Positions 2 to 20,794 of a stretch of DNA of 46,049 nucleotides are shown one piece after another. The stretch covers positions 1-46,049 of the forward strand of contig JAPDJO010000050.1 in NCBI GenBank assembly GCA_029259115.1, in the 5' to 3' direction. The position numbers and the translations under genes were made by a program. The notes below the pieces were generated by a model. That model was not told the DNA's origin and searched no databases. It worked only from the letters and a program-made list of their open reading frames with translations. The first letter of the stretch is position 1, and each line of letters starts with the position of its first letter. This DNA is from Thermoplasmatota archaeon (lineage in GTDB: Archaea; Thermoplasmatota; E2; DHVEG-1; B18-G2).

Positions 2-562
2 CAAAGACCAGAATACATAATAGTTGGTGAGATAAGAGGAAGAGAGGCATATGTTCTCTTCCAAGCAATGGCTACGGGTCATACAACTTACTCTACGATG
101 CATGCAGACTCTCCACAATCCTTGATACATAGATTGGAGGGTAAGCCGATAAACATACCGAGAGTTATGCTCCAAGCTCTCGAGGTCATAGCTATTCAGA
201 CAATAGCCAGAGTCAAAGGTAAAAGAGTGAGAAGATGCAAACAGGTTGTAGAGATAGTCGACATTGATCCAAAAACAAAAGAAATACTGACAAATGAGGT
301 ATTCAGATGGGATCCTGTTGAGGATACATTTATCTATTCGGGAAGGAGTTACATTCTTGAGAAGATAAGGGCATCGACAGGTATGAGCAAAGAGGAGATG
401 GTTGAAGAAATAAAGAGGAGGGTAAAGATACTGGAATGGATGAGAAAGGAAGGGATAAGATCTTACAAGGAGGTAGCCAAGATAGTTGCTGAATATGCTG
501 AGAAACCTGAAGAGGTTATGAAGAGGGTTGAGGAGGGGCTAAAGAAACATGCCTCTAAGTAG
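2..562 (+). CDS. Type IV pilus/type II secretion assembly ATPase (VirB11/FlaI/PilB-like), 5'-truncated by the window edge
   Basis: Frame is open from base 2 and reads QRPEYIIVGEIRGREAYVLFQAMATGHTTYSTMHAD (Walker B IIVGE plus His box). Followed by two TadC-like genes. Confidence 0.93.
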   Translation, partial: QRPEYIIVGEIRGREAYVLFQAMATGHTTYSTMHADSPQSLIHRLEGKPINIPRVMLQALEVIAIQTIARVKGKRVRRCKQVVEIVDIDPKTKEILTNEVFRWDPVEDTFIYSGRSYILEKIRASTGMSKEEMVEEIKRRVKILEWMRKEGIRSYKEVAKIVAEYAEKPEEVMKRVEEGLKKHASK

Positions 563-1454
563 ATATAAAAAATTCTGTTATAGGCTGTTCAGGGATTTGG
601 CGGAAAACAGTGTTAGTGAGGGTCTGAAAGAAGATCTACTTAAAGCGAATATAGACATACGACCAGCTGCTTATATTGCAACAGCATGGATGAACACAAT
701 AATCTCTATAATAGTGAGTGAGATAGCGATAGTCGCTTTACTATTTCTTATCTTACCTACACTCGGATTCAATATCATCAAGCTTTCATCTCCTTCCGCA
801 ATAGATGTTTTGATTTTTCTTGTGGTGATCATGATACCCTTTGGGATCGGATTTCTGGTATATTTTATTCACCTGTTATATCCAAAAAGCAGAGCAAAAT
901 ATAGAGGAAAACGAATAGATTTCTCCCTACCCTATGCGCTCAACTTCATATCGGCTATGTCAGCTGCTGGTGCTCCACCTCACGAAATATTCATAAGCCT
1001 TTCAAAGCAGAGTATATACGGCGAGGTTAGAGAGGAGGCAGCCCGAATAGCCAAGGACATGAAACTTCTTGGTATAGATGTTGTGACAGCATTGAAAAAA
1101 GCGATGGAAAGAACGCCGTCGGAACGCTTCAAAGAATTCCTCCAAGGAGCTATTGTTACAATAACATCTGGAGGGAGATTAAAGCCATACTTCATGGCAA
1201 AAGCGGATCAATATATGAGAGAAAATAGACAAAGACAAAAAACATTTCTCGAAACTTTGACTGTTATGGCTGAGAGCTATGTTACTGCTGCGGTTGCGGG
1301 TCCACTTCTCATGTTGATTGTTCTTCCCTTACTCATGATAGTTCAGGGTAGTTTTGGTCAGATTAAAGTACTGTATCCTATCGTTGGAATTATATTACCT
1401 CTGATACATTTTGGCTTCGCTATGGCTATTCGTACCATGACACCTGAGGTGTAA
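549..1454 (+). CDS. TadC/T2SS-F family pilus platform membrane protein
   Basis: Several TM helices; IDFSLPYALNFISAMSAAG, YGEVREEAARI, TPSERFKEFLQG and LETLTVMAESY are typical archaeal TadC segments. Confidence 0.9.
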   Translation: MPLSRYKKFCYRLFRDLAENSVSEGLKEDLLKANIDIRPAAYIATAWMNTIISIIVSEIAIVALLFLILPTLGFNIIKLSSPSAIDVLIFLVVIMIPFGIGFLVYFIHLLYPKSRAKYRGKRIDFSLPYALNFISAMSAAGAPPHEIFISLSKQSIYGEVREEAARIAKDMKLLGIDVVTALKKAMERTPSERFKEFLQGAIVTITSGGRLKPYFMAKADQYMRENRQRQKTFLETLTVMAESYVTAAVAGPLLMLIVLPLLMIVQGSFGQIKVLYPIVGIILPLIHFGFAMAIRTMTPEV

Positions 1455-1456
1455 AA

Positions 1457-2392
1457 ATGCCAAGATTCAAAAAATCGGGAAGAGAAAAAAATAAAGATAT
1501 TGCGTCAATCTCGCCAGTTTTGACCTTAGAAACTCTACTCTTCAGTAAAAGGTTTGCAAATGTGGTAACTGGTATATCCGTAACATCATCAACTGTACTC
1601 ATCATACTCGCTTTATTAAGTATACTAGGTGTTGTTCAATTACCATTGTCCGTAAACGACCTGATAGTTTTGGCCATTCTGAGCGGAACATCCATCTATG
1701 GTTTCTATCAGTATTTCCGTTCGAGATATATATGGAAGATAGACGATATATTTCCGGACTTTGTCAGAGATCTTGCTGAATCAAGGAGAGCTGGTATGAC
1801 CTTTACTAAGGCTATACTTATGGCAGCAAAGAGTAACTATGGTTTACTTACTCCTCATATTAAGAAAATGGCTAGGCAGATATCTTGGGGGGCGAGTGTG
1901 CATGAAGCGATGGATGAATTTGCAAAACATATAGGAACCCCTTTGGTCAAAAGAATCATATCTCTAATAAATGAGGCTACTAGGAGTGGTGGATCAGTTA
2001 CAGATGTTCTTATGGCTGCTGCCAATGATGCCAGGGAGTATCAGTTCCTTAGAAAAGAAAGGAGAGCAAGCATATCATCCTATGTTATAGTTGTGTACGT
2101 ATCATCTTTAGTGTTCCTTCTAATAACACTGATAATTATTAAACAATTCTTGCCTATGTTTAGTGGAGAGGCAATGACAGGTTTGAGCAGTGTAGTCACG
2201 GGTACATCCGCAACGCCGCAAATGCAAGAGATCAAGCTACTCTATTTCTATGCAGTGATCATACAAAGCATCGGATCAGGTATCGTTGCAGGAGTATTCG
2301 AGGATGGGCATTTTGAATCTGGTGTAAAACATGCTTTTATACTTTCAATAATTACCTGGCTATCATATAAATTATTTGTTCCTGGAATATAA
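1457..2392 (+). CDS. Second TadB/TadC (T2SS-F family) platform membrane protein
   Basis: FPDFVRDLAESRRAGMT, YGLLTPHIKKMARQISWG, SGGSVTDVL and C-terminal SGVKHAFIL; multiple TM helices. Confidence 0.9.
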   Translation: MPRFKKSGREKNKDIASISPVLTLETLLFSKRFANVVTGISVTSSTVLIILALLSILGVVQLPLSVNDLIVLAILSGTSIYGFYQYFRSRYIWKIDDIFPDFVRDLAESRRAGMTFTKAILMAAKSNYGLLTPHIKKMARQISWGASVHEAMDEFAKHIGTPLVKRIISLINEATRSGGSVTDVLMAAANDAREYQFLRKERRASISSYVIVVYVSSLVFLLITLIIIKQFLPMFSGEAMTGLSSVVTGTSATPQMQEIKLLYFYAVIIQSIGSGIVAGVFEDGHFESGVKHAFILSIITWLSYKLFVPGI

Positions 2393-2445
2393 AATCAGAA
2401 AAATATATTACTGTCATATGGTATGAGTAAGGAGGGGATGTAAAA

Positions 2446-5400
2446 ATGAAAAAAAAGACGATTGGTAGGTTGTATAAAGCGGTATCTCCAGTAATAGGGA
2501 CCATACTTGTGGTTGCTATAATCATATCTTCTATAACCGCTGTGATGATATGGGGCATACCTTACTTAGAAAGAACCAAGGCAGAGGCTCAACAGAGAGA
2601 TGTGTATCATCAGTTAGATCTTGCAAATGAGGCTATAAGAGATCTAATAAGCAGTGGTAAAGGTTCATCGAGAGAAATTAGATTATCCATGGAATCTGGG
2701 ACAATATCATTCGAAAACGAGCAACCAAGCCATGTCCTCATGTATGCAACGAGTAGCGACTACAATTTCTCTGTCGGTGGGTTAGATGATCTTGATAACA
2801 ACTTCATATTGAATATGGAAAAGGGAAGCGCAGATAAGGCAAATATATATAGATTTAATCCAGAAACATCTCTGCCCCCATATTATAGCACATCAAGCGA
2901 GCCAACAGCCTCCTACTATGGTAGTTTCTTGAGAAGAGTTCCTTTCAATCTCACCGATTCAAATAATACTGCTTACAAGATAACGAGCGGTAGTAGTACA
3001 CCACCTTCTCCTACGTCATTCACTTCAGAATACACATCGACAGAATATCAAAATGCTGGATATGATGATGACGAGAGCAATGCTTGGCATGGAGCAACTG
3101 GTACAGATGGCAAGTTTACAAATCTGATGTATAAATTCAAGATAGGAGATTATAATGCTAGTAATTTAGAAAAGATGGAGCTGAGATGGAAAGGCATAGA
3201 TACGCTCTCGGATGGAGGGTATCAGGGATTTTACATATGGAACCGATCCTCCAGTTCTTGGGAGCAGATAGGAGGAAATGGAGTCGCTTTGAGATTCGAT
3301 GGATTAAATGATAGAATCAATGTTCCGTGCAAGGAATATCTCAAGTATAAAGGAGGAAATTTAACCATTTGTGCATGGGTGTATGTTGAGGATGGAGAAA
3401 CTAATGGAAAAATAGTTTCTAAACCATGGAATGGACAAGGTCAGTACAATTATTATCTCTACCTCACTGGTGGAAAATTGGCACTATTTGTTGGTAACGG
3501 TACAGTATCCAAATATATAGTAGATCCTGATCCTGTATCTACAAAAGAATGGCATTACGTGACTGGAGTTTTGCACAGCGATGGGCTTATGGAGCTGTAT
3601 GTGGACGGAGAACTCAAAGCATCTGATAGCTATTCCATAACTAACTGGAATCCATCAAAAGGGGATCACAACATTAATCTGTGCATAGGTTCGCTTTACC
3701 CATACGGTTCTGGATGGGCTGGCAATGAGGGCTTTTCCTTTAGAGGTTTACTGCGTGACGTGTGCATATACAATGATTCTCTTGAGCAGAGCGAAATACT
3801 CCAGAATATGGAAGGGAACATGGTTACAGATGACTTACTAGGTTGGTGGAAACTTGATGATGCCCAAGGAACAGTTGCTCATGACGTAGCTAGACGCAAC
3901 GATGGTACACTTATGGATGGATGCAAATGGATAACAAACAGGGGAACATTTGCTTTGGAATTCGATGGAGTGGATGATTATGTGGGAGTGCCTGATTTAA
4001 ACCTTCATAATTCAAATAGTTTAACTATCGAAGCATGGGTGAAAGGCAACTCCTGGGCAGGTCAACCAGCTATAGTATTTTTTGGTGATGGTATATCGGC
4101 AGGTCAGTGGTCTATCGTTTTGTCGGTTTATAATAATAAATTTAGATTTGGTTTAGAATCCGGTACAACGGATTACAACACATGGGGTAATACAGTGTTA
4201 GATACAGGCGTTTGGTATCACTTGGTAGCAGTCAAAAATGGAACAGTAGTGAGAACATATATAAATGGAGTGCAAGATGACAGCGGAACTGCCCCTTCAA
4301 CAACTAATGATGTTACTAATCATCGAATTGGAGCAATGTATACCACGAACCCAGATTATTACTTCAACGGCACCATCGACGAAGTCCGTATTTACAACAG
4401 AGCATTAACCGCTGATGAAATTTATCAGAATTATCTTGGGAATGTTACAACTGCAGGCTTAGTTTCATGGTGGAAATTTGATGAAGGGTATGGAAATGTC
4501 CTGCACGATTCTGTTGGTGAAAATCATGGTAGGATACATGGTGCACAGTGGATTGACTACAAGAATTTCGCATTAAAATTCGATGGTGAAAGAGACTATG
4601 TATTGATTCCGGATTCAGATAGCCTTGATATTTCAGACAATATTACTGTGGAGACCCGCGTATGGTATGCTGGAGGGAGTAGCAAAACTGTATGGGCAAA
4701 GGATACAGATCATGACATAGGTTGCAACCTTTACGATCCTGCAAGCGACAATTACGCTCCCGGTGACGTAGTTAGATATGCAGTGCCAGAAAATGGAACA
4801 GGGAACTTAATGATCTACGAATTCACTGGAAGTATGGATTCTCACTATGGGAGAACCGGCATATATCTTCGACTAAAGATCGGAGAAAAACCACCGGTTT
4901 CAGAAGATATAGTCAAATTGGAAGTCTGGGATTTAACGGAAAATTGCAAAGTCTTGGAAGATTTATACAAGACTTCGGATTTTGGCACTAAAGATATAAC
5001 AAAATATTGGTATGGTTACCAGATAGGACATCATCCTAGATTTTTCGCATATAGTGGACATTCTTACAGAGTGGTTGTGTACTATTATGCGAATGTCCCC
5101 GTCTATATAGAAAGATTAACATTTGATCGGTATCATAGACCACCAGTAGAGAAGGGATCAGCGTGGAGATTGTATACGACTGGTGGAACGTTCCAGTTTT
5201 TAGTTTGGCATCCAGATGGCACCTATTCATATGCAAATTATTATGGTTTGACATCATACTGGAGAGGGTGGGTGGACTTAACCGCAAGTTACAGTTCTGT
5301 AGACGGGTTCAAATTATATGTCAATGGTAACGAAGTTACACCATCCTATGTTAGATTCTTGGGTAAGAGTATAAGAACCACATCCAGTCCAGTATACATA

Positions 5401-8400
5401 GGATCCGGTTATCATAAATTTCCGGGAATGGTAGATTATGTTAGGATATATAATAGAGTTCTAACAAGTAGTGAAGTAAAACAAAACTATCTTGAGAAAG
5501 TTACGACCGACGGGCTCGTCTCTTGGTGGGATTTCAACGAGGGTTACGGAAATGTAGTGCATGATAAAATCGGTGACAATGATGGAACCATATACGGTGC
5601 AGATTGGGTCTACACAGATGGAGGCTCCTTAGAATTTGATGGTGTAGACGACTACGTATCTGGAAAGGGAACAGCAACTTTTGATGATTTCACTATAATA
5701 GCTACGGTCAAGCAAGAAGGATGGCATGGACACCATGAACCTATCTTTGCGTGGGCTAACTCAACAGATGGTTTGTATCTGATATTGAGCAAAGATAAGT
5801 ATCTGAGAGTCGGCGTAGAAGTTAATGACAATTTCCACCATGAAGGACTGTACTACATAGGGGATAACTACATTGGGAAAGAAAAGATGTATGCGGCTAG
5901 ATGGGATGGTGATACTGGTTCAGTAAAGGTTTACATAGATGGTAATTCAGTTGGCGAATCCACATCATATCCAACTGGGTCGATAGACCTAAGCAAAGGT
6001 GTTAACTTCTGTATAGGGAAGAGCACAACTGGCTACTGGGGCGAAACTAGTGCAAGATTTTGGGGAAAGATATCGGAGATTTTGGTTTACAATAGAGCAC
6101 TCAGTGATAGTGAGATACAAGATATATACTCGGGCAGTATAGTAACGAGCGGTTTAGTAGCATGGTGGAGATTTGACGAGGCTAAAGGCATAACTTTAAA
6201 TGATTTTGCTGGTAACAATATAGGAAAACTCGTTAATGGCCCGGTTTGGAGAGGAGATATACCTCCCACAAACGAGAACCTCTATGTCGAAACAATTTTA
6301 GGCAATCTTTCAAACTACGTAGATGACTCTAACTATGTAAAAATATGTGTGGTTGGTGGTAAAGGAGAAAGTTTCACTTCTCCTTCATCCTGTACATCTT
6401 GGTACTATGACAGAAACAAAGCATATTGTACATGGATAGATGCCTATAATGAGGATGAGTACTATGTGCAATACAGTACAGATGGGGGAGCCACTTGGAC
6501 TAACGATCCCAATTCACCTTACTTCCCTGGAACAACGCAATCTGAACCAATATATTTCGGTCCAGAAAAACAGATAAAATTCAGAGTAAAATCTGTTAAA
6601 GATGGCATATCTTCAGGATGGTCAACCTCTGGTTACATATATACAGCTCCAGGAAAACCAGAGAATGTTCAGGCTGTCTCTGTGTCATCGGATTCGATAA
6701 ATGTAACATGGACAGACAACTCGAGTTATGAGTCTGGATATGTTATTTATAGATCTACAAATGGTGGAAATTATGAATTTTTAACATCTGTGCCAGCTAA
6801 TACAGAATATTACCTAGACACAAGTGTAACTGCTGGTAATACCTACACATATAGAGTCTACGCGTACAAGAGCATAAGTAATCCCAAGATAAATATATAT
6901 AGTGATCCTGGAAATAGTTCTCTCGTATCCCCAACAGAATGGTGGGATACAAACTGGCAGTACTATAAAGTCTGCAATATCGATACAAACGGGTATTCAG
7001 GATACTATCAGATGAGAATAAAAGTCGGTTACAGTTCGGGGGGAGACGTATCATGTGAAGGTCATTGCCAACCAGATTTTGACGACATCCGTTTTGTCGA
7101 TACCGACAACTCGACAGTGTTGCCACATTGGAAAGAGACTTATGTGGATTCTCAATTTGCCATATTTTGGGTTAATGTTTCAGCAGATGCAATGAGTGAT
7201 GGAAAAATACTCATGTATTATGGTAACCCATCTGCTACTGATGCAAGCGATGGAGATTCAACTTTCATATTTTTTGATGATTTTACAACAGATACAACAG
7301 GCAATTATAACATAGTTGCAGGAGATGATAATAAAGCCCACTTGGTAGGCAATAATTTCTTCAGTGTGCAAGATGGAGTTCGAATGATATGGAAGACTAA
7401 AATTACAAATTTTGATGCTAATCAATGGGGCTCTTATATAGGTTTTTATTATGGAGATGTGTTAAATTCTCCACGTTACATGAATAACAGATGGTGGAGT
7501 ATTATTAGTAGCGACACAGATGCTGGAGCAAGCGATAGTCCATTAACATTAGTTTTGCAGGCAGGTTCAGAAAAAGCAGGGACTGTTACAAAAGTAAAAC
7601 AGGTAATGCAATTTAGCTTGAATAGAGCATATTATTTTGAGCATTGTATGTCTCAAACAAAAATAAAAACAAGAGCCAGAGATGCTAATTTTTTGGAGAT
7701 TACATCTGCAGAGCTAACAACAGGAATAGCTGATATTTCCACACTAAACTATGCAATGATTATGCTATGGCATTGTAATGAAGATGGCACAGAGTGGGAT
7801 TGGTCATGGAATTCCGTAGAACAAGCAGTAAGAATGTACGTAAAGAGAGATGGTTGGAGTATAATAGATACACTTAGTGATTGGTTTGGTATTGCTAAAT
7901 GGGTTGATACAGAACCACGATGGAGCGGTTTCAGTAGTGAACAAACTCAACCAACAGTTCTATGCCTTTCAGGTGACACTCGAGTAGAGATGATTAGTGG
8001 TGAGTACAAGGAGATACAAGATATAGGAAAAGGAGACATACTTCTATCCTACGATCCTGAAAGAGGAGAGTATACATCATGCAAGGTCGTATCTGTAGGT
8101 ACATCTACCCAGCAAGTTTATAGTATAAATGATGGACTGTTGTACATCACGGATACCCATCCATTGTATGCAAGAAAAAGTGATGGGTATGAAGGCTGGG
8201 TTACGATAAATCCAGAAAAGATGAAAGAACATTATGGTATTAGTGAGGTTAGAAAGCTAGAGATCGGAGACAAACTTTATTGCAGATACGATGGATGGGA
8301 TGTAGAGGTAACGTCGATAGTACCTCAAGATGTGAGAGAGGTTTACAATTTAGAGTTAACATACCCATACACATTCTTTGCCAACGGAACACTTACTAGA

Positions 8401-9354
8401 GCTATGCCTTCTACTCACATGAGAAGCTCCTCTCACACGATGTATGAAAACTATGTCGAGTTGTCTATATATTTCATACAGAATGATTCTACTCCACCTT
8501 CTACAACCATAACTTCTACGGATCCAGTACTCGTTGATGGGAAAACAACCTCATCTACAATAACTTTCTACTGGTATAGTACTGACAATCTATGTCCGTC
8601 TGACGATCTTGTCTATTGCTGGATGCTTGTTGGCAGAGATTTGGATTGGAGCAATTGGACTTCTCAAACTTATGTAACATACACAGATCTGGTTCCTGGA
8701 GACTATGTATTCAAGGTAAGAGCCAAAGATCTTGCAGGTAATGTTGAAAGACCATCATCACTCAACACATTATCATTTACCGTATTGGAGGCTAGCGAAA
8801 CCATTTCGATATCTGCATCACCAGGAGTACCAACTACAGTGACTACTAGTGAACCCCTCAAAGGTTTTGTCCTCATTGACTTATACAACGGCAGTGTCAA
8901 CCTAGGTAAGATATGGCTCTTGACACCAGGAGAAGTAGAGTATAGAATACCGACGAGTGAGGGAACTTATGGAGTCTCTCTACTCGATGGAGGGATATCT
9001 ATGATATATCCTGATGGTAGCGCTATTGTAGGAGAGCCCATAATCTCCATGGGGAATTCCATGATCCATTTACATTTCATACATATGTTTGGTAGTACAT
9101 TCTCTTTCTCAGGTAGAGGTACGTGCAAATTCAAGTTTACGCTTTCTCAAAGCAAGATACTCCAGTATCGCGTACCTGTTTATAATCTGAGATTCCAGTT
9201 CTTTGGCGAAACTTCAGAGGGATGGACCAACTATTTCAAGATATATCATTCATTCAAAAAGATGGGAGAAAATGAGGTGGCTAAATTCAATCAACCTGTA
9301 AACTTGGTATTGGGATACTCATCGATAAAGGTTGAGGAGAGTGGGTTTGGATGA
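2446..9354 (+). CDS. Giant pilin-like adhesin (2302 aa): class III signal peptide, 4 LamG domains, 2 FN3, DUF2341, Hint domain, Y_Y_Y/Ig domain, pilin-scaffold C-terminus
   Basis: N-terminus KKKTIGRLYKA|VSPVIGTILVVAII; repeated ALxFDGxxDY...IDEVRIYNRALT...GLVSWWKFDEG LamG units; FN3 (PENVQAVSVSSDSINVTWTDNSSYESGYVIYRS); DUF2341 (DFDDIRF...FWVNV...MYYGN...FIFFDDF); CLSGDT Hint start. GGAGGGG SD upstream. Confidence 0.88.
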   Translation: MKKKTIGRLYKAVSPVIGTILVVAIIISSITAVMIWGIPYLERTKAEAQQRDVYHQLDLANEAIRDLISSGKGSSREIRLSMESGTISFENEQPSHVLMYATSSDYNFSVGGLDDLDNNFILNMEKGSADKANIYRFNPETSLPPYYSTSSEPTASYYGSFLRRVPFNLTDSNNTAYKITSGSSTPPSPTSFTSEYTSTEYQNAGYDDDESNAWHGATGTDGKFTNLMYKFKIGDYNASNLEKMELRWKGIDTLSDGGYQGFYIWNRSSSSWEQIGGNGVALRFDGLNDRINVPCKEYLKYKGGNLTICAWVYVEDGETNGKIVSKPWNGQGQYNYYLYLTGGKLALFVGNGTVSKYIVDPDPVSTKEWHYVTGVLHSDGLMELYVDGELKASDSYSITNWNPSKGDHNINLCIGSLYPYGSGWAGNEGFSFRGLLRDVCIYNDSLEQSEILQNMEGNMVTDDLLGWWKLDDAQGTVAHDVARRNDGTLMDGCKWITNRGTFALEFDGVDDYVGVPDLNLHNSNSLTIEAWVKGNSWAGQPAIVFFGDGISAGQWSIVLSVYNNKFRFGLESGTTDYNTWGNTVLDTGVWYHLVAVKNGTVVRTYINGVQDDSGTAPSTTNDVTNHRIGAMYTTNPDYYFNGTIDEVRIYNRALTADEIYQNYLGNVTTAGLVSWWKFDEGYGNVLHDSVGENHGRIHGAQWIDYKNFALKFDGERDYVLIPDSDSLDISDNITVETRVWYAGGSSKTVWAKDTDHDIGCNLYDPASDNYAPGDVVRYAVPENGTGNLMIYEFTGSMDSHYGRTGIYLRLKIGEKPPVSEDIVKLEVWDLTENCKVLEDLYKTSDFGTKDITKYWYGYQIGHHPRFFAYSGHSYRVVVYYYANVPVYIERLTFDRYHRPPVEKGSAWRLYTTGGTFQFLVWHPDGTYSYANYYGLTSYWRGWVDLTASYSSVDGFKLYVNGNEVTPSYVRFLGKSIRTTSSPVYIGSGYHKFPGMVDYVRIYNRVLTSSEVKQNYLEKVTTDGLVSWWDFNEGYGNVVHDKIGDNDGTIYGADWVYTDGGSLEFDGVDDYVSGKGTATFDDFTIIATVKQEGWHGHHEPIFAWANSTDGLYLILSKDKYLRVGVEVNDNFHHEGLYYIGDNYIGKEKMYAARWDGDTGSVKVYIDGNSVGESTSYPTGSIDLSKGVNFCIGKSTTGYWGETSARFWGKISEILVYNRALSDSEIQDIYSGSIVTSGLVAWWRFDEAKGITLNDFAGNNIGKLVNGPVWRGDIPPTNENLYVETILGNLSNYVDDSNYVKICVVGGKGESFTSPSSCTSWYYDRNKAYCTWIDAYNEDEYYVQYSTDGGATWTNDPNSPYFPGTTQSEPIYFGPEKQIKFRVKSVKDGISSGWSTSGYIYTAPGKPENVQAVSVSSDSINVTWTDNSSYESGYVIYRSTNGGNYEFLTSVPANTEYYLDTSVTAGNTYTYRVYAYKSISNPKINIYSDPGNSSLVSPTEWWDTNWQYYKVCNIDTNGYSGYYQMRIKVGYSSGGDVSCEGHCQPDFDDIRFVDTDNSTVLPHWKETYVDSQFAIFWVNVSADAMSDGKILMYYGNPSATDASDGDSTFIFFDDFTTDTTGNYNIVAGDDNKAHLVGNNFFSVQDGVRMIWKTKITNFDANQWGSYIGFYYGDVLNSPRYMNNRWWSIISSDTDAGASDSPLTLVLQAGSEKAGTVTKVKQVMQFSLNRAYYFEHCMSQTKIKTRARDANFLEITSAELTTGIADISTLNYAMIMLWHCNEDGTEWDWSWNSVEQAVRMYVKRDGWSIIDTLSDWFGIAKWVDTEPRWSGFSSEQTQPTVLCLSGDTRVEMISGEYKEIQDIGKGDILLSYDPERGEYTSCKVVSVGTSTQQVYSINDGLLYITDTHPLYARKSDGYEGWVTINPEKMKEHYGISEVRKLEIGDKLYCRYDGWDVEVTSIVPQDVREVYNLELTYPYTFFANGTLTRAMPSTHMRSSSHTMYENYVELSIYFIQNDSTPPSTTITSTDPVLVDGKTTSSTITFYWYSTDNLCPSDDLVYCWMLVGRDLDWSNWTSQTYVTYTDLVPGDYVFKVRAKDLAGNVERPSSLNTLSFTVLEASETISISASPGVPTTVTTSEPLKGFVLIDLYNGSVNLGKIWLLTPGEVEYRIPTSEGTYGVSLLDGGISMIYPDGSAIVGEPIISMGNSMIHLHFIHMFGSTFSFSGRGTCKFKFTLSQSKILQYRVPVYNLRFQFFGETSEGWTNYFKIYHSFKKMGENEVAKFNQPVNLVLGYSSIKVEESGFG
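7963..8403 (+). other. Hint domain within the giant pilin; N-terminal catalytic residues intact, C-terminal His-Asn replaced by Arg-Ala
   Basis: Block A CLSGDTRVEMISGEYKEIQDI, block B ITDTHP, blocks F/G VYNLELTYPYTFFANGTLTRA|M where VHN|C/S/T is canonical; 147 aa, no endonuclease. Confidence 0.87.
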
Positions 9355-11867
9355 GGAGGGATTTTGCAGTATCTCAAGTCATAGGCTTTTTACTATCTTT
9401 TGTGATAGCATCCTCACTTCTTGTTACTGCGATATTCTTCACTACAACTCTTGTTAGTGAAAGACTAGAGAGATCTGCAGAGATCCAAGCTACCGAGATA
9501 TTGAACAGAGTAGTTGATGCTGTAGTCGAAGCTGCTTATGTAAAACAGACTTATCCAAATGCAGATTATTGCAAAACATTGGATATACCCACATCCATAG
9601 GCGGTCACCAGTATTATATAGAATTTACAGATGACAAGATATATCTGAATTTCACGACAATGCACTCGTCCATAAACGTTTCAACATACAAGTTGGGAAT
9701 ATTGAACGTGGGTCTCTCTGGTAAGGTATACTCTTCTTCTGGTAAAGTAAAGATATATTGTAACAGGAGCCGATATCTTTACAAATTTGATTTTGGCACG
9801 GTTACATCTCCAAAATACATGAGAGAGCCATTTACTAGGGTAGGAGATAGCTGTAGCAACACCAATCCACCGTGGCCAACCCAATATGATGCTTTCAAGT
9901 ATAGGGTACCTATATTCCTTATAAACCCGAATACAGATCCTCAATACTCTACAGTTTATGATTTTCAGGTTAGGATTCAACTCGATCCGTCCACTATAGA
10001 TTATGACAAGATAAACAGCAATGGCTCTGATCTGAGATTCTATGATCCAACATCGGGAACCGAGCTGCCATACTGGATTGAGGTTTGGAAATACGGAGGG
10101 AGATCTTTTGTTTGGGTAAAGGTGCCCGAGATCTCTCATGATACTGGTAGGTTGATATACATGTATTATGGAAATAAAAAAGCCCAACCCAAGAGTAATG
10201 GATCTCAAGTTTTCTTACTCTTCGATGATTTTAACAGTAAAGACACGACTAAGTGGGCATTTAAAAATGGAAATGCGAAAGTGGAAGATGGTTTTCTCGT
10301 TTTTAATGGAGAATCTGCTGTGGTAAGTAAGACATTCACAGTGCCAGATGAATGTATAGTCTCAGCACTTGTATACTCGGTTGGAAATACAACAAGAGAG
10401 GGTAGCATATTCGTAAGATGCCAAGATCAGCTTCAATACTACAACAGTGGATATATGCTTTCTTCAGGTAATCTATCAGATCCAAGTAGAAATTTGGCAA
10501 TAATAAGAGACAATGCCACGGTAATAGCAAACTCTTCATCGAATTCTCCAATGTTAAGTGGAGTTGTCTACAAATTGGTTTTTGCTGTATGGAATGACAC
10601 ATACTTTGGGATGAGGCTGGTATATGACGATGCCTCTCAGGATTTCATTCTGGATGGAGATAGTTATGCAGCCTGTATAGATACTACTTATACTGGTGGA
10701 TATCTTGGGTTATGTGCAGCGAATGATGGAGATTTTGTAACAAAGTTTGATTGGATAATAGTTTACAAGGCGATAAATCAATCCATCAGCTACACTCTAG
10801 GTGGAGAGGACTCTAAATTTTTCTGGTGGGATGATGTAAGTGTTCTCTATGCAAGATATAACAGCAATGGAGGAGCATTGTACGGAGACTCTGTTTTTTC
10901 AAATATATCTCTAAATCCAAGCAGAAGTCCAACCACGCTTTACCTGAAGCTTCCAGATACATATCTAAGTACGTTTGATATGTTGTACAAATGGAGCTTT
11001 GAAGAAGATTTTTCAGGATCTGCTGATGGTAGATATGCCTATGAAGACGCTGGATCAGATCCCATAGAGATCCACGGGGCACAATGGGTTGAGGGTAAGT
11101 TCGGGACCGCTCTCTACTTTGATGGCTCAGATGATTATGCAAAAACGGTTTCCACAATCACAATGCCCAGAAACGTCACATTTGTAGCCTGGATAAAGCC
11201 GTATTTTGATTACAATGATGGTCTGAATCACGAGTGGTTGTACTGGAGTGCTGGAGGTACATACATGCATGCATATAAACATAGCAATGGAGAGACCTAC
11301 TTTGTTATAAATGGTCTGAACTCATGGCAGGGGGTTCATGCTGTCATTCCTTTTTCTTCAGGAGATTTCCATCTTTTTGTAGGTGTCTACAATGCTTTAA
11401 ATGATACCCTCCTGATGTACTGGGATGGAGAGCTTATAGGGACTGCATCGGGAAGCGGTCCTCTATCGACGAGTGCGGGATATCTCTATGTTGGATCAGC
11501 TGGCAGCAGTAGATTCTTCCATGGTATCATAGACGAGATAAGGATATATCAGAGAGCACTTAGTGGAGATGAGATCAGAGAGTACTATAATAAGGCAAGT
11601 CATCGAATATATAGTGTTTCTTTTGCTGTCGGTGATGAGGATAGAGATATAGATAATGAGTGGATAAATTCTTCTTACCTACAAAGAGGAAAAAAGATAG
11701 ACACCCTGTCTGGAGAATACAAAAGGGGATGGTTCTATGTAGAAGTTGATGATGGGATTCTTGATATCACATTCTATGATAGTGATTCCGGAGATGACTT
11801 TTACTGGAATATATGTATGCTTACTGTTGAGGAGGGGATAAGAGGGGTTAAGGGTGAGGGAAGATGA
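9351..11867 (+). CDS. Pilin-like protein (838 aa) with DUF2341, LamG and a split galactose-binding-like beta-sandwich
   Basis: RRDFA|VSQVIGFLLSFVIA class III signal; GSDLRFYD...LPYWIE...VWVKVP...YMYYGN...FLLFDDF (DUF2341); ALYFDGSDDY...IDEIRIYQRALS (LamG); ATGA overlap with upstream gene. Confidence 0.85.
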   Translation: MRRDFAVSQVIGFLLSFVIASSLLVTAIFFTTTLVSERLERSAEIQATEILNRVVDAVVEAAYVKQTYPNADYCKTLDIPTSIGGHQYYIEFTDDKIYLNFTTMHSSINVSTYKLGILNVGLSGKVYSSSGKVKIYCNRSRYLYKFDFGTVTSPKYMREPFTRVGDSCSNTNPPWPTQYDAFKYRVPIFLINPNTDPQYSTVYDFQVRIQLDPSTIDYDKINSNGSDLRFYDPTSGTELPYWIEVWKYGGRSFVWVKVPEISHDTGRLIYMYYGNKKAQPKSNGSQVFLLFDDFNSKDTTKWAFKNGNAKVEDGFLVFNGESAVVSKTFTVPDECIVSALVYSVGNTTREGSIFVRCQDQLQYYNSGYMLSSGNLSDPSRNLAIIRDNATVIANSSSNSPMLSGVVYKLVFAVWNDTYFGMRLVYDDASQDFILDGDSYAACIDTTYTGGYLGLCAANDGDFVTKFDWIIVYKAINQSISYTLGGEDSKFFWWDDVSVLYARYNSNGGALYGDSVFSNISLNPSRSPTTLYLKLPDTYLSTFDMLYKWSFEEDFSGSADGRYAYEDAGSDPIEIHGAQWVEGKFGTALYFDGSDDYAKTVSTITMPRNVTFVAWIKPYFDYNDGLNHEWLYWSAGGTYMHAYKHSNGETYFVINGLNSWQGVHAVIPFSSGDFHLFVGVYNALNDTLLMYWDGELIGTASGSGPLSTSAGYLYVGSAGSSRFFHGIIDEIRIYQRALSGDEIREYYNKASHRIYSVSFAVGDEDRDIDNEWINSSYLQRGKKIDTLSGEYKRGWFYVEVDDGILDITFYDSDSGDDFYWNICMLTVEEGIRGVKGEGR

Positions 11868-12307
11868 ACTGTAAGGCACAGTTCAATGTTATAGAAGCAA
11901 TAATCGCTGTTGGTATAGTGTTTGCAGCGATATACATAGTTTCTTCGATGGTCGGAAGCCCTGTAATAACAACAGCAAGCACAACAAACCAGTTGAAGGT
12001 ATTGGCAGATGATATTCTGAGATCACTGGATGCGAGGAACGAATCAATACCTCCGAGATATCATCATAGTCTCCTTGTCAAGTACATAGCTGAGAGGGAT
12101 ATCTCTTCTCTCACTTCCATAATAAACGATACCATTCCACCTACAGCTCTCTATAATCTCTACCTATATAACGCATCTAATCGCACCACAACGCTTCTAT
12201 ATCCAAGTAATGCCCTACCCCCAACTGGAAATGTTGCGAAGGCTAACAGGATGATAGTCTACGATGGCTATATCTATGAGGTTGAGTTGGAGGTGTGGAC
12301 GGTATGA
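11864..12307 (+). CDS. Small pilin-like protein (class III signal peptide, Gln at +1, Glu at +6)
   Basis: MNCKA|QFNVIEAIIAVGIVFAAIYIV; C-terminal YEVELEVW beta-strand typical of euryarchaeal minor pilins; ATGA coupling. Confidence 0.8.
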   Translation: MNCKAQFNVIEAIIAVGIVFAAIYIVSSMVGSPVITTASTTNQLKVLADDILRSLDARNESIPPRYHHSLLVKYIAERDISSLTSIINDTIPPTALYNLYLYNASNRTTTLLYPSNALPPTGNVAKANRMIVYDGYIYEVELEVWTV

Positions 12308-12798
12308 GACTAAAGAAACATTTAAATAATATAAGTTACAGAGTATATAGTGAGGAGAAAAATGCTGTCATACCTCATGCCATCATATATCAAGGTGAGG
12401 AGGGACAGATGATGTTGTTAACATCTGTCCTGATAGCAGTTGGAGTTATTCTTCTCTCTTCGATAGCTCTATCTCTGTCAAATATCGGCACCCTACTCCC
12501 TGTAGAAAAAAGCAGATCTTTACTTCCAGAGTATGAGAATATAAGAGACAAACTTGGAGACTATTTCGATGATCTCATAAGCGAGAACGCATCGGATATG
12601 AAATGGATAACCTATGTGTTCAACAGAGCAAAAGAGGAAATATTCTTCATAGAGTCCAAACACATGAGATACTTTGACGCTACTTTGGATAGAATCACCT
12701 ATCTAGCAAATGGTGATGTGGAGATAGTTGTGGACCTCTATCTGAGAGATGATGTTTCCTCTATAAATGAGGAGGTGGTATACCGAGTAAAAGTTTAG
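12304..12798 (+). CDS. Small pilin-like protein with an unusually long leader
   Basis: EEG|QMMLLTSVLIAVGVILLSSIALSL class III-type site; start placed at ATG 12304, which overlaps the upstream stop (ATGA). Confidence 0.72.
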   Translation: MRLKKHLNNISYRVYSEEKNAVIPHAIIYQGEEGQMMLLTSVLIAVGVILLSSIALSLSNIGTLLPVEKSRSLLPEYENIRDKLGDYFDDLISENASDMKWITYVFNRAKEEIFFIESKHMRYFDATLDRITYLANGDVEIVVDLYLRDDVSSINEEVVYRVKV

Positions 12799-12802
12799 TG
12801 AG

Positions 12803-12836
12803 GTATATAAATTATAATTAAGTTTAAATATTAATA
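12803..12836 (+). promoter_or_regulatory. AT-rich TATA-like tract; possible internal promoter for the double-Hint pilin gene
   Basis: GTATATAAATTATAATTAAGTTTAAATATTAAT in the only uncoupled gap among the pilin genes. Confidence 0.35.
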
Positions 12837-12861
12837 TGTGTATATGGAATATGGTGAGAAT

Positions 12862-15800
12862 ATGAGAAGGTTGTATGGAGATAGGAGGGGGGTTGCTTCA
12901 CCTTTAGAGTTCACAACAGCCTTTGCTGTATTCTTTGTAGCATTCGCTTTAATGGCGGTGTATGTTGGTAATGTCCTTGCACCTTTTGAAACAAACAACG
13001 CAAATTATGAAGCCGTAGCTATAGAGATAGCAGAGAAATTGGTGAACAATCCAGGGAGAACATTAAAGGGAAATGTTGAGTGGGAACTAGAGCCTGACCA
13101 GCTAGCATATCTTGGTTTAGCGATGCCAAAGCCAGTATACGATGTGTATTTCTATGGAAACGGAACCATAGAGGTGGTGGTTGACAAGGTAAATGAATAC
13201 TTTGATCTAGCAGTTGAAGACCTCTCATACTCCCCAAGAACACCAACAGTGATAGAAGGCTCGAAGATATACGTATCTTTCAAGGTAAAGAATCTTATGA
13301 GTGGTAATGCATCTGCGTTTAACTACACGGTCCAGATAGACAATTATGTTCAGTATCAGGGAAGATACAACAAGAGTCTAGCACCTGGAGAGGTTGCAAG
13401 CTTTGACAACATAGAGGCAACCGTTCCTTCCGATGGAAAGAGCTATTATGTCCTGATGGTTTCAATCTTCCCAGATGTTCAGGATGCGGATATATCAAAT
13501 AACGCAGCATCCCTAACACTAATTGTTGAAAGCGGAGGAGATACTGACACAGACATAGATACGGATATAGATGGAGATAGCGACTGGTTGGTGATAGAAA
13601 TAGATGGTCCAACGAGCATCTATGTTCCTATAAATCCGAGAACAGGTTCACAGACCGGTAGTATAGGTGGAAGCACATCATCTGGAGGAATAAAATACGC
13701 GAATGTGACCGCTACTTATACGGTTGAGAGATTAGAGAGGAACAGTGGAGCGTCTGTTGCGTTACCTGTTTACTTCTGGTGGACAGGTGGTCCCTCTGGA
13801 CCAGCGGAGGGGTTAGAACTCCGATCATATAAGGTTACCTTCACCAAGGACGATGAAGGAAATCACATGATATCCTGCAGTGCAAGAGATGCTGAGGGCG
13901 TGACAGGTGATGCTCGCTCACTACTAGTTCATGTCGAGGTTGAGAAGATAACTGTTGTGATAAACGGTCCTACCAATGTAGAGGCTGGCAGAATATATAC
14001 GTATACGATAACAGCATATCATAATGGTGAGGAATTCTGGTTAGCTGGCAGATCTCGAGCTTATGATGTGCATTGGTCAACAAATGGACTAGTTAGCGAG
14101 GGATTCAATGGAGCTTGGTACAAATGGAATGAACCAGGCAACTACACTGTGGCTGTGTGGGGTAAGATAGACTATAAAGGAGAGATACTTGGATATCCTT
14201 TCTACGCATCGATATCTGTAAGAGTAAATGGCTCAGATTCATCTGACACATGTTTCCTAGCAGGAACAAAGATACTGATGGCTGATGGAACAACTAAGAA
14301 CATAGAAGACGTTAAAGTAGGAGATCTTGTGAAGTCTTATGATACTGAAACTGGAGAAATTAAGGTGAGTAAGGTTACAGAGGTGTTCCATCACAGCCCA
14401 GATGAGATGGGAGATTACTATCTAGTGATAAACAACGAACTCAAAGTAACTCCGAATCATCCGTTCTATGTCAATGGAAAATGGATTCCAGCAGAAGAGA
14501 TAAAGGTTGGAGATGTGCTGGGAACAATGAAGGTTAAATCCATAGAGAAGGTTTACAAGAAGGTTCCAACATACAACATAGAGGTTGAGCCGTATCACAG
14601 TTACATTCTTGCATTCTCAAATCTAGTGGTTCACAATGGTGCAGCTTCTGGATCACAGACAGGTAGTGGCTCGGTAACACCTCTTTACAGTCTGTCTGTA
14701 GGTGTAACTCCTTCATCTGCTGGATATGTTGATATAACTCCAGCAAAGAATGGTTACTCAAGTGGAGAGACAGTTACTCTGGAGGCAAAGGCATATTCTG
14801 GATACACCTTTGATCACTGGTCTGGAGATGCGAGCGGAGATAATCCAAAGATAACTATAACGATGAACTCAAACAAACAGGTTACCGCTGTTTTCAGGTC
14901 AACTAGTGGAGCTGGAGCTGTACAGGGAACTCAACAATCAGCAAATGCTGTTCTTGTCCCATTGAACGGAGACATATCTGGAGGATCTGGAGGACCAAGT
15001 TTGGATCTCGGTGGGACTGCAGAATCTCTAGGAAATGTGTTAGTAATTACTGGAAACAAGGGAAGCACAAGCAATCCCTTCTACAGTACACCTGTAGGCA
15101 CCCAGCAGGTAAATGTAAATCCATTCAACGGTGGAGAGAACACATGCTTCCTAGCAGGGACAAAGATACTGATGGCTGATGGATCTCTAAAGAACATAGA
15201 AGATGTCAAAGTTGGAGATCTTGTGAAGTCTTATGATACTGAGACTGGAGAGATAAAGACAGGAAAGGTCACGAAGGTATTCCACTTCGGTGCTGACAAG
15301 ATGGGATACTACTACCTGAAAATAAATGGCAATCTAATGTTAACTCCAAACCACATGCTCTATGTCAATGGAAGATGGACTCCTGCTGGAGAGGTAAAGG
15401 TTGGAGATACACTCGGATTTGGAACAAAGGTTTACAGCATAGAGAAGGTATACTATGATTTCAGACCCGTTTATGATCTTGAGGTCGAGCCTTACCACAA
15501 CTACATGGTTCTCACCTCATCCGGTACAGTACTTGCCCACAATGCTACAGCATCCGCGATACTGATAGAGGGAGCCAGTGCTGATAGTGGAGACTCTCAG
15601 CTTGTAGACTCTTCAAGTACAGCAGGAATCGAGGAAGAGGCAAATACAGACGATGATGTAGGTGATAGTGATGATAGCGATATAGATGAGCCTCAGGAGG
15701 AGACAGATACGGAAGAGGAACTTGATGAAGATGTTCAGATCCTGCCGAAAGGTGACTCCACAACTTACGTCTACAACGGAACATCTGTAGATCCATCTGC

Positions 15801-16236
15801 AAAGATTTCAATAATGATATCAAGAATGTACGAGATGGTCCCGAAACCATCTGGAGGAAGTAATGACTGTAGATACAGGAGAATTGAGTATTCTGGGACA
15901 ACAACATCAGGAATACCTTTCCTTAGGGTACTGATGACATCAACTAAGGAAGTGAGCTACGCTACGATAATGCCTGAGAAGATAGAGGCTCTAAGATACA
16001 TACCTTATGAGAAGGCAAAGGATGCGTTACTCGGAGATGCTGGTATAAACGATGTTGACTTCATGATAAGAATAACGAGACTCGATGGATCAGAGATACT
16101 CAGCTATGGTGCTCAATACAAGGATTCATCAACAGCGATTGCAAGTTACAGTAGACAGATAGTGATATATCCAAACGAGATCCTAGAATACGACGGCTTT
16201 ATACCAGCAATACTAACGGTAACGGTATTCAAGTAA
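12862..16236 (+). CDS. Large pilin-like protein (~1124 aa): class III signal, CARDB, Ig/PKD-like domains, two Hint domains flanking an InlB B-repeat, acidic linker, pilin-scaffold C-terminus
   Basis: MRRLYGDRRG|VASPLEFTTAFAVFFVAF; GGTGA SD before ATG 12862; CARDB (DLAVEDLSYSP...DADISNNAAS); two CFLAGTKILMADG...HN units; YTFDHWSGDASG B-repeat. Confidence 0.87.
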   Translation: MRRLYGDRRGVASPLEFTTAFAVFFVAFALMAVYVGNVLAPFETNNANYEAVAIEIAEKLVNNPGRTLKGNVEWELEPDQLAYLGLAMPKPVYDVYFYGNGTIEVVVDKVNEYFDLAVEDLSYSPRTPTVIEGSKIYVSFKVKNLMSGNASAFNYTVQIDNYVQYQGRYNKSLAPGEVASFDNIEATVPSDGKSYYVLMVSIFPDVQDADISNNAASLTLIVESGGDTDTDIDTDIDGDSDWLVIEIDGPTSIYVPINPRTGSQTGSIGGSTSSGGIKYANVTATYTVERLERNSGASVALPVYFWWTGGPSGPAEGLELRSYKVTFTKDDEGNHMISCSARDAEGVTGDARSLLVHVEVEKITVVINGPTNVEAGRIYTYTITAYHNGEEFWLAGRSRAYDVHWSTNGLVSEGFNGAWYKWNEPGNYTVAVWGKIDYKGEILGYPFYASISVRVNGSDSSDTCFLAGTKILMADGTTKNIEDVKVGDLVKSYDTETGEIKVSKVTEVFHHSPDEMGDYYLVINNELKVTPNHPFYVNGKWIPAEEIKVGDVLGTMKVKSIEKVYKKVPTYNIEVEPYHSYILAFSNLVVHNGAASGSQTGSGSVTPLYSLSVGVTPSSAGYVDITPAKNGYSSGETVTLEAKAYSGYTFDHWSGDASGDNPKITITMNSNKQVTAVFRSTSGAGAVQGTQQSANAVLVPLNGDISGGSGGPSLDLGGTAESLGNVLVITGNKGSTSNPFYSTPVGTQQVNVNPFNGGENTCFLAGTKILMADGSLKNIEDVKVGDLVKSYDTETGEIKTGKVTKVFHFGADKMGYYYLKINGNLMLTPNHMLYVNGRWTPAGEVKVGDTLGFGTKVYSIEKVYYDFRPVYDLEVEPYHNYMVLTSSGTVLAHNATASAILIEGASADSGDSQLVDSSSTAGIEEEANTDDDVGDSDDSDIDEPQEETDTEEELDEDVQILPKGDSTTYVYNGTSVDPSAKISIMISRMYEMVPKPSGGSNDCRYRRIEYSGTTTSGIPFLRVLMTSTKEVSYATIMPEKIEALRYIPYEKAKDALLGDAGINDVDFMIRITRLDGSEILSYGAQYKDSSTAIASYSRQIVIYPNEILEYDGFIPAILTVTVFK
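13540..13584 (+). repeat. Asp-X dipeptide repeat linker (DTDTDIDTDIDGDSD)
   Basis: Degenerate 6-bp periodicity (gat act gac aca gac ata gat acg gat ata ...). Confidence 0.7.
14251..14637 (+). other. Hint (BIL-A/PT-HINT-like) domain 1; ends His-Asn, +1 residue Gly
   Basis: CFLAGTKILMADG...VTPNHP...TYNIEVEPYHSY...VVHN|GAASG; 129 aa. Confidence 0.92.
15145..15543 (+). other. Hint (BIL-A/PT-HINT-like) domain 2; ends His-Asn, +1 residue Ala
   Basis: CFLAGTKILMADG...LTPNHM...VYDLEVEPYHNY...LAHN|ATASA; 133 aa; first 38 aa are 36/38 identical to Hint 1. Confidence 0.92.
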
Positions 16237-16239
16237 TCT

Positions 16240-18066: not shown

Positions 18067-18094
18067 ATGCTGGATTGATATGCCTCTACTCTTT

Positions 18095-20683: not shown

Positions 20684-20794
20684 TCGAACATCACCTCAGA
20701 GTATACTATTGTATGTTTTCACGACTTATAAATATTTTGATTTCGTTATAAAAATAAGCCAACTTTTAAATACAGCTTATCTATACAAGGGTTG

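Follow-up and report, generated by a model that had tools for sequence, protein, structure and literature searches.

Maturation of type IV pilins is understood to involve a single proteolytic step, in which the class III signal peptide is removed. The archaeal locus type outlined as Clade 1 by Makarova et al. encodes an ATPase, two TadC proteins, two large DUF2341 proteins that may act as adhesins of the tip, as proposed there, and five or more minor pilins (PMC4858521), and the same locus type is named System 1 in a 2026 preprint, where its platform is given as encoded by two genes. Separately, self-cleaving bacterial intein-like (BIL) domains are already known from variable secreted bacterial proteins, and those of the A type are characterized, in the outline given in PMC7765530, by a conserved His-Asn, by a location where non-conserved secreted proteins are hypervariable, and by N- or C-terminal cleavage. 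The domain BIL2 of Tetrahymena thermophila BUBL1 is described as joining its N-flank to lysines of several substrates through an isopeptide bond (PMC8616854). Here we analyze a stretch of DNA in which these two themes meet: 46,049 nucleotides (referred to as the window) from a Thermoplasmatota archaeon, comprising the first 46 kb of contig C12 (JAPDJO010000050.1), from base 1, in a genome of 1.40 Mb and 94 contigs. Eight genes on the plus strand extend across bases 2-16236, and judged by its gene content their backbone is a known Epd-like (Clade 1/System 1) archaeal type IV pilus locus. Two of the encoded pilin-like proteins, p4 and p8, contain Hint domains, and we rate somewhat above even the chance that these carry out BIL-type self-processing of pilus tip proteins via thioester chemistry at the N-terminal junction.

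A first-pass annotation of the window had placed three Hint domains inside two of the pilins, and all three are genuine Hints that resemble BIL domains. Two of them lie in p8, a pilin-like protein of 1132 residues (12838-16236, plus strand): HintA (residues 472-600; 14251-14637, plus strand) ends in VVHN and is followed by Gly601, and HintB (residues 770-902; 15145-15543, plus strand) ends in LAHN and is followed by Ala903, and both have Cys1 and the motif T-P-N-H. They match the Pfam family PT-HINT at 84.3 bits, against a cut-off of 27.7, as well as the models for the N- and C-terminal parts of inteins, and HintA is also matched by Intein_splicing and Hint. HintA resembles the BIL domain 2lwy over its full length of 129 residues (E 1.1e-12) and also the Hint within 8w20, a protein of 1368 residues (E 1.5e-13) that we take to be a component of a Streptomyces toxin particle. 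The two p8 Hints are 69% identical to each other with a ratio of nonsynonymous to synonymous substitution rates (dN/dS) of 0.23, and a profile search of the genome gave no further Intein_splicing or PT-HINT match beyond p8.

The third Hint occupies residues 1840-1986 of p4 (7963-8403, plus strand), a pilin-like adhesin of 2302 residues encoded at 2446-9354 on the plus strand. It has Cys1 and the motif T-D-T-H, ends in FFANGTLTRA, and is followed by Met1987. In Pfam its only match is to Vint, below threshold, and its assignment comes from structure: an AlphaFold2 model based on 22 relatives reaches a predicted local distance difference test score (pLDDT) of 92.4 and a predicted template modeling score (pTM) of 0.87, and a Foldseek comparison of this model with the PDB returns BIL2 (6y75) as the top match (TM 0.79-0.82, E 1.6e-10), with DnaB mini-inteins, 2lwy, and Hedgehog (1at0) ranking behind it and a RecA mini-intein also matched. 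The sequences of the p4 Hint and 6y75 are 23-24% identical and are related by phmmer at E 0.004. When FFANGTLTRA is aligned with the FFANG-x-L-V-[H/S]-N of its relatives, the p4 domain has Arg-Ala in place of His-Asn, which rules out its cleavage by Asn cyclization. We also considered an end of the domain immediately after FFAN, before the Gly, and rejected it, as the alignment shows ANG to be a conserved strand ahead of [H/S]-N. At 129-147 residues the three domains are of mini-intein size, which leaves no room for an endonuclease, and none has Cys, Ser, or Thr at the +1 position, so that canonical trans-esterification is not predicted and, by their flanking residues, the window Hints are not canonical inteins. 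Both absences had been noted in the first-pass annotation, which also proposed a different chemistry in the two pilins, and this agrees with the His-Asn that would serve both p8 Hints and the missing terminal Asn of the p4 Hint.

The distribution of these domains was examined by way of TadC2, the second platform gene of the locus, which was searched for in 118 genomes of the order and has orthologues at 45-58% identity in 91 further genomes, with a paralogous system at 32-38%. Seventy-three loci were compared (70 fetched downstream regions, two already in hand, and the window itself), and 18 loci in which TadC2 is within about 2.6 kb of its contig's downstream end were left out, together with G011. 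A cassette equivalent to p4-p8, made up of one to three p4-like genes followed by p5, p6, p7, and a p8-like gene, is present at 21 of the 73 loci and in 12 genera; in the larger family of the order it is located between TadC2 and housekeeping genes. At least one Hint is found in the p4-like and/or p8-like open reading frames of 20 of these 21 cassettes, and in the single cassette without one the contig stops after p5. At the 52 loci with another pilin cassette, or with none, there is no Hint on the operon strand. Hints are also present in the p4-like genes of cassette fragments on other contigs of two further genera and of a second cassette in G012. A different, Hint-less class III-type cassette, with proteins of approximately 830, 1290, 1280, and 291 residues, lies downstream of the orthologous TadC2 in many genomes of the order (L027, L034, L046, L055, L058, L061, and others), and one assembly machine thus appears, from gene content, to be paired with alternative pilin sets.

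The catalytic residues are retained to a far greater extent than the remainder of the domain. All 71 distinct full-length Hints keep Cys1, one Ile position, and the block-B Thr and His (T-x-x-H), at a mean column identity of 40%. In the full set of 102 domain rows, which includes duplicates, Asn is the terminal residue in 81 of the 85 rows that align there, and the penultimate residue is His in 70 and Ser in 12. The residue at +1 is variable (Ala 30, Lys 10, Ser 8, Thr 6, Gly 5, Asp 5, Gln 5, Pro 4, and others 7, among 80 rows) and is never Cys. Values of dN/dS, obtained for the Hints of 10 out of 11 orthologue pairs, range from 0.09 to 0.64, and those for the remainder of the same genes from 0.085 to 0.59, with dS saturated in one of the Hint comparisons and in two of those made outside the Hint. 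Where a pair is divergent, its Hint is conserved above the remaining gene, for example at 63% versus 34% identity. The Hints are therefore neither sporadic nor decaying, given their presence in nearly every cassette, their invariant catalytic residues, and these dN/dS values, which are comparable with those outside the Hint or below them. As for the conservation of Hint position and terminal residues, which the first-pass annotation had named as a check, the terminal Asn is conserved in most rows, and the position and copy number of the Hints vary.

A quick maximum likelihood tree of the Hints (IQ-TREE, in which the supports are solely from the SH-aLRT, a Shimodaira-Hasegawa-like approximate likelihood ratio test) separates two clades with a support of 96. 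One, with the pattern CC...ANG-x-LV[S/H]N, holds the p4 Hint beside a Hint without His-Asn from a same-family genome. The other, with the pattern TC...VLVHN, contains HintA, HintB, the Hints that precede the C-terminal core domain, and those of giant proteins, and also takes 20 of the 21 Hints sited just after the N-domain of p4-like proteins. Within the Hints at this p4 N-site is a subclade (five Hints from four genomes, support 97) in which His-Asn has been lost and the domain ends in FADGFLV-[R/K]-S or similar, with Cys1 and T-x-x-H still kept. Since Cys1 and T-x-x-H are universal while His-Asn has been lost in places, it is the N-terminal thioester apparatus that has been kept throughout the family, and not the apparatus for C-terminal cleavage.

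The p4-like proteins have in common an N-terminal pilin domain of approximately 110-190 residues (p4N) and a C-terminal domain of approximately 300 residues (p4C), and these two are adjacent in Hint-less paralogues of 332-353 residues. Similarly, the core of p8 consists of residues 1-125 and approximately 1010-1132, and a p8 orthologue of 240 residues in G012, in which the N and C parts are contiguous, covers only residues 8-122 and 1018-1131 of the window protein; the C-terminal domain of p8 (p8C) is conserved in most p8-like proteins. These contiguous forms indicate that the window p4 and p8 are two-part cores split by a long variable insert. In p4 the order of domains is a class III-type N-terminus, four Laminin_G_3, fn3, DUF2341, the Hint, Y_Y_Y, and the C-terminal p4C, and the Hint stops five residues short of the match to the conserved C-domain. 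The p8 insert of approximately 890 residues contains CARDB, HintA, Flg_new_2, HintB, and an acidic linker, with the two Hints flanking the Flg_new_2 module. In relatives, a Hint either follows the N-domain directly or immediately precedes the C-domain. Taken together, the p4 and p8 inserts are, from their domain content, long, variable, and adhesin-like, with BIL-type Hints inside them or at their borders.

Whether the two parts of the p8 core could remain associated is addressed by a complex prediction for residues 1-125 with residues 1010-1132, which scored 0.84 (0.80, 0.84, and 0.84 in separate runs) versus 0.00 for the best of three controls, with a partner pLDDT of at least 83, a contact agreement between runs of at least 84%, and extensive strand pairing. 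A mark of this type was reached in calibration by 58 of 80 solved complexes and by 2 of 110 mismatched pairs, a rough guide since the alignments were self-supplied, and the two p8 halves belong to one fold, so a passing score is expected if they form a single domain. An AlphaFold2 model of the 240-residue Hint-less orthologue, made without an alignment, was uninformative (pLDDT 36.7). The complex prediction supports the view that the core pieces of p8 would remain together after a cut in the intervening chain.

We propose the following course of events. The proteins with class III signals would be exported in a Sec-dependent manner and would then fold outside the cell, a timing suggested by these signals and by the Peptidase_A24 gene of the genome. 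The bond before Cys1, which in the window Hints follows Thr471, Thr769, and Leu1839, would then be converted to a thioester by an N-S acyl shift, with the aid of the block-B Thr-x-x-His, and this thioester would be resolved either by water, which would break the chain, or by an amine, in a BIL-type religation or a transfer to lysine; in the religation route the freed amino group of the C-flank would attack the thioester. The p8 Hints, with His-Asn, might also cut the C-terminal junction by Asn cyclization, and the p4 Hint, with Arg-Ala, would not. As a net effect the pilin anchor and its bulky passenger modules would have their covalent link broken or rewired after export, and the core halves would stay packed against each other.

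Hints of this type are not limited to the cassette, and their wider occurrence bears on how the proposal should be viewed. Giant secreted proteins of related genomes contain tandem arrays of 3 to 8 or more Hints, from both subfamilies, in which some later copies look degenerate, with no aligned Cys1 or His-Asn. These include a protein of 3526 residues with at least eight Hints (L019, G013:C18, 5886-16466), one of 2759 residues with at least five (L018, G006:C15, 230-8509), and an open frame of at least 3276 residues with tandem Hints (L020, G014:C1, 10169-19999). Hints at 37-56% identity are found in DPANN archaea, Patescibacteria, Elusimicrobia, Omnitrophota, Gammaproteobacteria, and Planctomycetes, often as the terminal domain. 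Two Patescibacteria proteins, of 681 residues (L134, 4369-6414) and 719 residues (L135, 4252-6411), have a bacterial type IV pilin N-terminus and a C-terminal Hint; in the first, the one of the two that was checked, Pfam confirms N_methyl, and its Hint spans residues 555-676 of 681. Among the best 120 relatives of the 681-residue protein, four clusters join N_methyl with Hint families, homologues of approximately 500 residues have no Hint, and other homologues of its middle domain end in T9SS, IPTL-CTERM, or SLH. A C-terminal Hint is also present in a pilin-like protein from Planctomycetales (L150, 5329-6414) and in an Aenigmatarchaeota protein with an archaeal-type N-terminus (L126, 4189-6381). 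The bacterial and Aenigmatarchaeota examples show that pilin-Hint fusions are not confined to this archaeal order.

Several observations weigh against self-processing as the function of the pilin Hints. Cleavage, splicing, and ligation are indistinguishable at the level of sequence. The claim of the first-pass annotation that the domains are non-splicing agrees with the missing +1 nucleophile of the window copies and does not extend to every relative, as Ser or Thr occupies +1 in 14 of the 80 rows and canonical splicing is possible for some of these copies. The purifying selection on the catalytic residues would also be seen in a parasitic, self-excising element. The position of the Hint varies and the copy number ranges from 1 to 5 per protein. 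In the first p4-like genes of two loci from one genus (L063, 8733-11729, and L071, 7973-10984) the Hint is 69% identical (dS 0.69) and the sequence elsewhere is 92% identical (dS 0.15), which suggests that the Hint of this pair was replaced by recombination in the fashion of a mobile module. The same Hint subfamily is found in non-pilin secreted proteins as well as in the tandem arrays of the giants. Among 101 sampled genomes of the class, the His-Asn subfamily was found in 17, of which 13 belong to a single family of this order, represented by 33 genomes, and three are outside the order; in the two outside-order genomes that were examined, the Hints are in non-pilin secreted proteins and not in pilin cassettes, with one such open reading frame ending in a p8C-like domain. 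In addition, two congeners of the window genome lack the entire pilin cassette at this site, and it is thus dispensable there.

Much of this evidence is what would be anticipated if the Hints were selfish or neutral mini-BIL elements that recombine among fast-evolving surface-protein genes and are self-excising or tolerated, with no benefit to the pilus. Their variable position and copy number, the arrays in giant proteins, the Hint swap in the close gene pair, the occurrence of the same subfamily in DPANN archaea and several bacterial phyla, and the missing cassette in the congeners all favor this explanation, which we nevertheless consider unlikely, since a homing endonuclease is absent, as is a +1 nucleophile in most copies, and the clade without His-Asn has been retained at one site in four genomes although it could not excise by Asn cyclization. 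Moreover, Hints are in 20 of the 21 cassettes and are missing from all 52 loci that have a different pilin cassette or none, and they cluster in the tree by host site, with the p4 N-site label requiring 5 changes versus a shuffled mean of 18.4, although this last argument is weak because related genomes share labels. A more passive role, in which the Hints would be structural elements or spacers and catalytically silent, like some eukaryotic domains of the Hint fold, has in its favor the absence of His-Asn from the p4 Hint and the matches of the Pfam models AXH and Vint to these Hints, both of which are presumably non-cleaving families of the Hint fold. It is improbable given that none of the 71 Hints departs from Cys1 and the block-B Thr and His, at only 40% mean identity, and that the terminal Asn is retained in 81 of 85 rows, as this exact catalytic set is not expected to persist in silent domains.

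The remaining two explanations have the Hints active but to a different end. Ligation would have the N-junction thioester passed to a lysine or another amine of a second pilus subunit, an envelope component, or a target surface, so that the pilin-anchored fragment would become cross-linked, giving a sortase-free covalent pilus tip or a covalent adhesin. This is suggested by analogy, as the nearest solved structure to the p4 Hint is BIL2, a reported former of Lys isopeptides (PMC8616854), and as Cys1 and T-x-x-H are invariant and the C-terminal Asn is dispensable. Furthermore, the Hint is the last domain in the Patescibacteria pilins L134 and L135 and in the Aenigmatarchaeota protein L126, where N-junction chemistry alone would be possible, and homologues of the L134 middle domain bear sorting or anchoring domains at that same end instead. 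Such thioesters hydrolyze by default, however, and putative ligation is in our view a doubtful candidate. The other possibility, that the proteins are polymorphic toxins in which PT-HINT frees a C-terminal toxin delivered by the pilus, would account for PT-HINT being the top-scoring Pfam family for HintA and HintB and for 8w20, the presumed toxin particle component, being among the PDB matches. It is very improbable and we rejected it: the regions past the Hints are conserved pilin-core domains (p8C, and p4C, which is also found in Hint-less paralogues) and not variable toxins, no toxin family was matched in the window proteins, and p8 is not followed by a small immunity-like gene, the next genes being on the opposite strand. 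Self-processing of the tip proteins through the N-junction thioester is the reading that we prefer, and it is the one that is carried forward below.

The rest of the locus fits a pilus assembly system of known type. The first gene (2-562, plus strand) is truncated by the end of the contig and encodes the C-terminal 186 residues of a T2SSE/FlaI-like ATPase (PF00437, E 5.3e-16, PilB3_C, with a partial match to the FlaI model), a fragment that is 80-82% identical to the ATPase of two congeners. It is followed by TadC1 (301 residues, 549-1454, plus strand; PF00482 T2SSF, E 3.4e-20) and TadC2 (311 residues, 1457-2392, plus strand; PF00482, E 5.9e-19). TadC1 corresponds to positions 15-249 of FlaJ and 51-252 of UpsF, and TadC2 to FlaJ positions 269-539, and these matches to the N- and C-terminal halves of FlaJ/UpsF show the platform protein to be split between two genes. 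TadC1 and TadC2 (549-2392) are 53-57% identical to their counterparts in the congeners (L023, L024), where flanking housekeeping genes are mostly about 80-94% identical; with identities so far below those of the ATPase and the housekeeping genes, the platform proteins are fast-evolving.

Of the five proteins that follow, p4 matches DUF7289 (above cut-off) and Pilin_N, and p5 (838 residues, 9351-11867, plus strand) is pilin-like and without a Hint, matching DUF7266 (above cut-off), DUF2341, and Laminin_G_3; p5-like genes occupy the same slot in the cassettes of relatives. The minor pilin-like p6 (147 residues, 11864-12307, plus strand) has K-A-Q...I-E and then a hydrophobic helix, with DUF7288 at E 0.003, below cut-off, and has orthologues in the relatives' cassettes. 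Likewise minor pilin-like, p7 (167 residues, 12295-12798, plus strand, start codon uncertain) has G-Q-M-M-L-L ahead of its hydrophobic helix and no Pfam support, and its assignment as a pilin comes from orthologues with a common G/S/A-Q-hydrophobic motif. The last, p8, has DUF7287 at E 0.002, also below cut-off, in addition to CARDB, Flg_new_2, and its two Hints. The class III-type N-termini of p4-p8 were called by a charged stretch, G/A, and a hydrophobic helix. The first-pass description of an ATPase, two TadC genes, and five class III signal genes is thus borne out by the Pfam and FlaJ/UpsF matches and by these N-termini, the ATPase being partial, and its description of the run as largely translationally coupled agrees with overlaps between genes of 14, 4, 4, and 13 nucleotides and gaps of 2, 53, and 39 nucleotides. 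There is no prepilin peptidase within the window, and no small major pilin either, though major pilins were not sought; the one Peptidase_A24 prepilin peptidase gene of the genome is on another contig, beside a paralogous TadC.

In the two congeners the ATPase, TadC1, and TadC2 are followed by homologues of 20792-21175 and 21226-21543 and then by a serine recombinase. From this gene order, window positions 2393-20791, with p4-p8 and two genes on the minus strand, are absent at this site in the congeners. One of these minus-strand genes (16240-18066) encodes a protein of 608 residues that has a lipoprotein-like signal and weakly resembles a squalene-hopene cyclase, and the other (18095-20683) a secreted protein of 862 residues with PKD and a caspase-family domain (Peptidase_C14). 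Also absent from the congeners is the gene for an 1122-residue Flg_new_2 repeat protein at 21667-25035, within 21544-25186. The serine recombinase gene (25187-26008), which adjoins these insertions, is conserved in the congeners. Further along the window, at 31334-35073, are genes for a PolX-type polymerase with PHP and a NAD-dependent LigA-like DNA ligase with BRCT, the ligase being 94% identical in a congener; a pairing of PolX with a bacterial-type ligase is unusual in an archaeon.

Public sequence data give a weak hint that the locus is expressed. Two metatranscriptome libraries made from a single marine-sediment sample contain short contigs that match pieces of 704-17303 with 0-7 differences and touch TadC1, p4, p5, p6, p8, and the 608-residue gene, for example at 15148-15459 (within HintB), 15853-16145, 6053-6375, and 11769-12108. 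Metatranscriptome libraries can contain DNA, such that these contigs cannot prove transcription, and the uncovered parts carry no meaning. The public runs that contain 23-77% of the sampled words carry the label hydrothermal vent, marine sediment, or marine metagenome. Among the DNA contigs, one joins 4439 to 6151, in the Laminin_G_3 repeats of p4, with 1711 bases skipped and 16 other letters between, and may represent either repeats that vary in copy number or an artefact of assembly. A second DNA contig joins 14599 to 15145, between the two Hints of p8. Each join is seen in one low-depth contig and falls in repeated modules, and we place no further interpretation on them.

The first-pass annotation knew of no characterized archaeal pilin with a Hint, and full-text literature searches likewise found no description of a Hint-bearing pilin. 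The main texts of the archaeal pilus surveys (PMC4858521 and the 2026 preprint) do not mention an intein or a Hint domain, one of them having the letters of Hint only within the everyday word hinting, though their supplementary tables could list one, and the main text of the polymorphic-toxin survey PMC3482391 contains neither pilin nor pilus. In a collection of 5.8 billion proteins, the relatives of a p4-like protein of 584 residues are nameless or labelled as a hypothetical protein, and one weaker, Hint-only match is labelled as intein/homing endonuclease. The pilus backbone and the domain class are therefore known, and it is their conserved combination that is new and apparently undescribed in print.

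If self-processing of the tip and minor pilins is correct, it would be a second and self-catalyzed step in their maturation and hence a new layer of pilus biogenesis, in a Hint-pilin combination that has been retained in at least 12 genera within one archaeal order and is echoed in the pilins of Patescibacteria. What BIL domains do biologically in bacteria is still vague, and BIL-type Hints would be extended to archaea in a defined cellular setting. Depending on the product, be it cleavage, religation, or isopeptide transfer, such a step could explain how huge adhesin modules are released from, or fixed on, a thin filament. Were it ligation that takes place, the same logic would extend to the type IV pilins of Patescibacteria that end in a Hint.

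A comparison with the known systems places the window relative to each of them. As a pilus locus it has in common with the Clade 1/System 1 (Epd-like) type the ATPase, two TadC proteins, two large DUF2341 proteins (here p4 and p5), and at least five proteins with class III signals; the surveys of that type name methanogens, Thermococcales, and DPANN, and the window is from Thermoplasmata. With canonical class 1 mini-inteins the window Hints have in common the fold, Cys1, and T-x-x-H, as well as the His-Asn of p8, but the copies in the window have no Cys, Ser, or Thr at +1, their hosts are variable pilin-like or secreted proteins rather than housekeeping sites, they occur in tandem and at variable positions, and the p4 copy lacks the terminal Asn. 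The Hog domain of Hedgehog, in which chemistry is confined to the N-junction, with an outside nucleophile and no Asn step, is a fit to the p4 Hint and the clade without His-Asn. The p4 Hint differs from Hog in having no sterol-recognition region and in being followed by further domains, and as it nests in the tree among Hints ending in [H/S]-N, it represents a derived loss and not a member of the Hog family. The PT-HINT domains of polymorphic toxins match the same model as the p8 Hints and similarly use a Hint to cut a secreted multidomain protein, but in the window there is no C-terminal toxin or immunity gene and the C-termini are conserved pilin cores.

The closest counterparts are the BIL domains. 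The p4 Hint has in common with BIL2 of T. thermophila BUBL1 (6y75, 6tmm) the C-terminal strand ...FFANG-x-L..., but BIL2 ends in His-Asn (the crystal being of the C1A-N143A mutant) where the p4 Hint has Arg-Ala, and BIL2, unlike the p4 Hint, is eukaryotic and lies between ubiquitin-like domains. The A-type BIL domain of Clostridium thermocellum (2lwy) is like the p8 Hints in its fold, Cys1, T-x-x-H, His-Asn end, and a following residue that is not a nucleophile, an assignment of the p8 Hints that is made by His-Asn and the match to 2lwy, and it is the p4 Hint, with its Arg-Ala, that departs from this type. BIL domains are presented as bacterial in the outline given in PMC7765530. The BIL-type Hints of the window are archaeal, reside in pilin-like proteins with class III signals that are encoded by a pilus operon, and, in contrast to A-type BIL domains, have been kept in 20 of the 21 cassettes of their kind.

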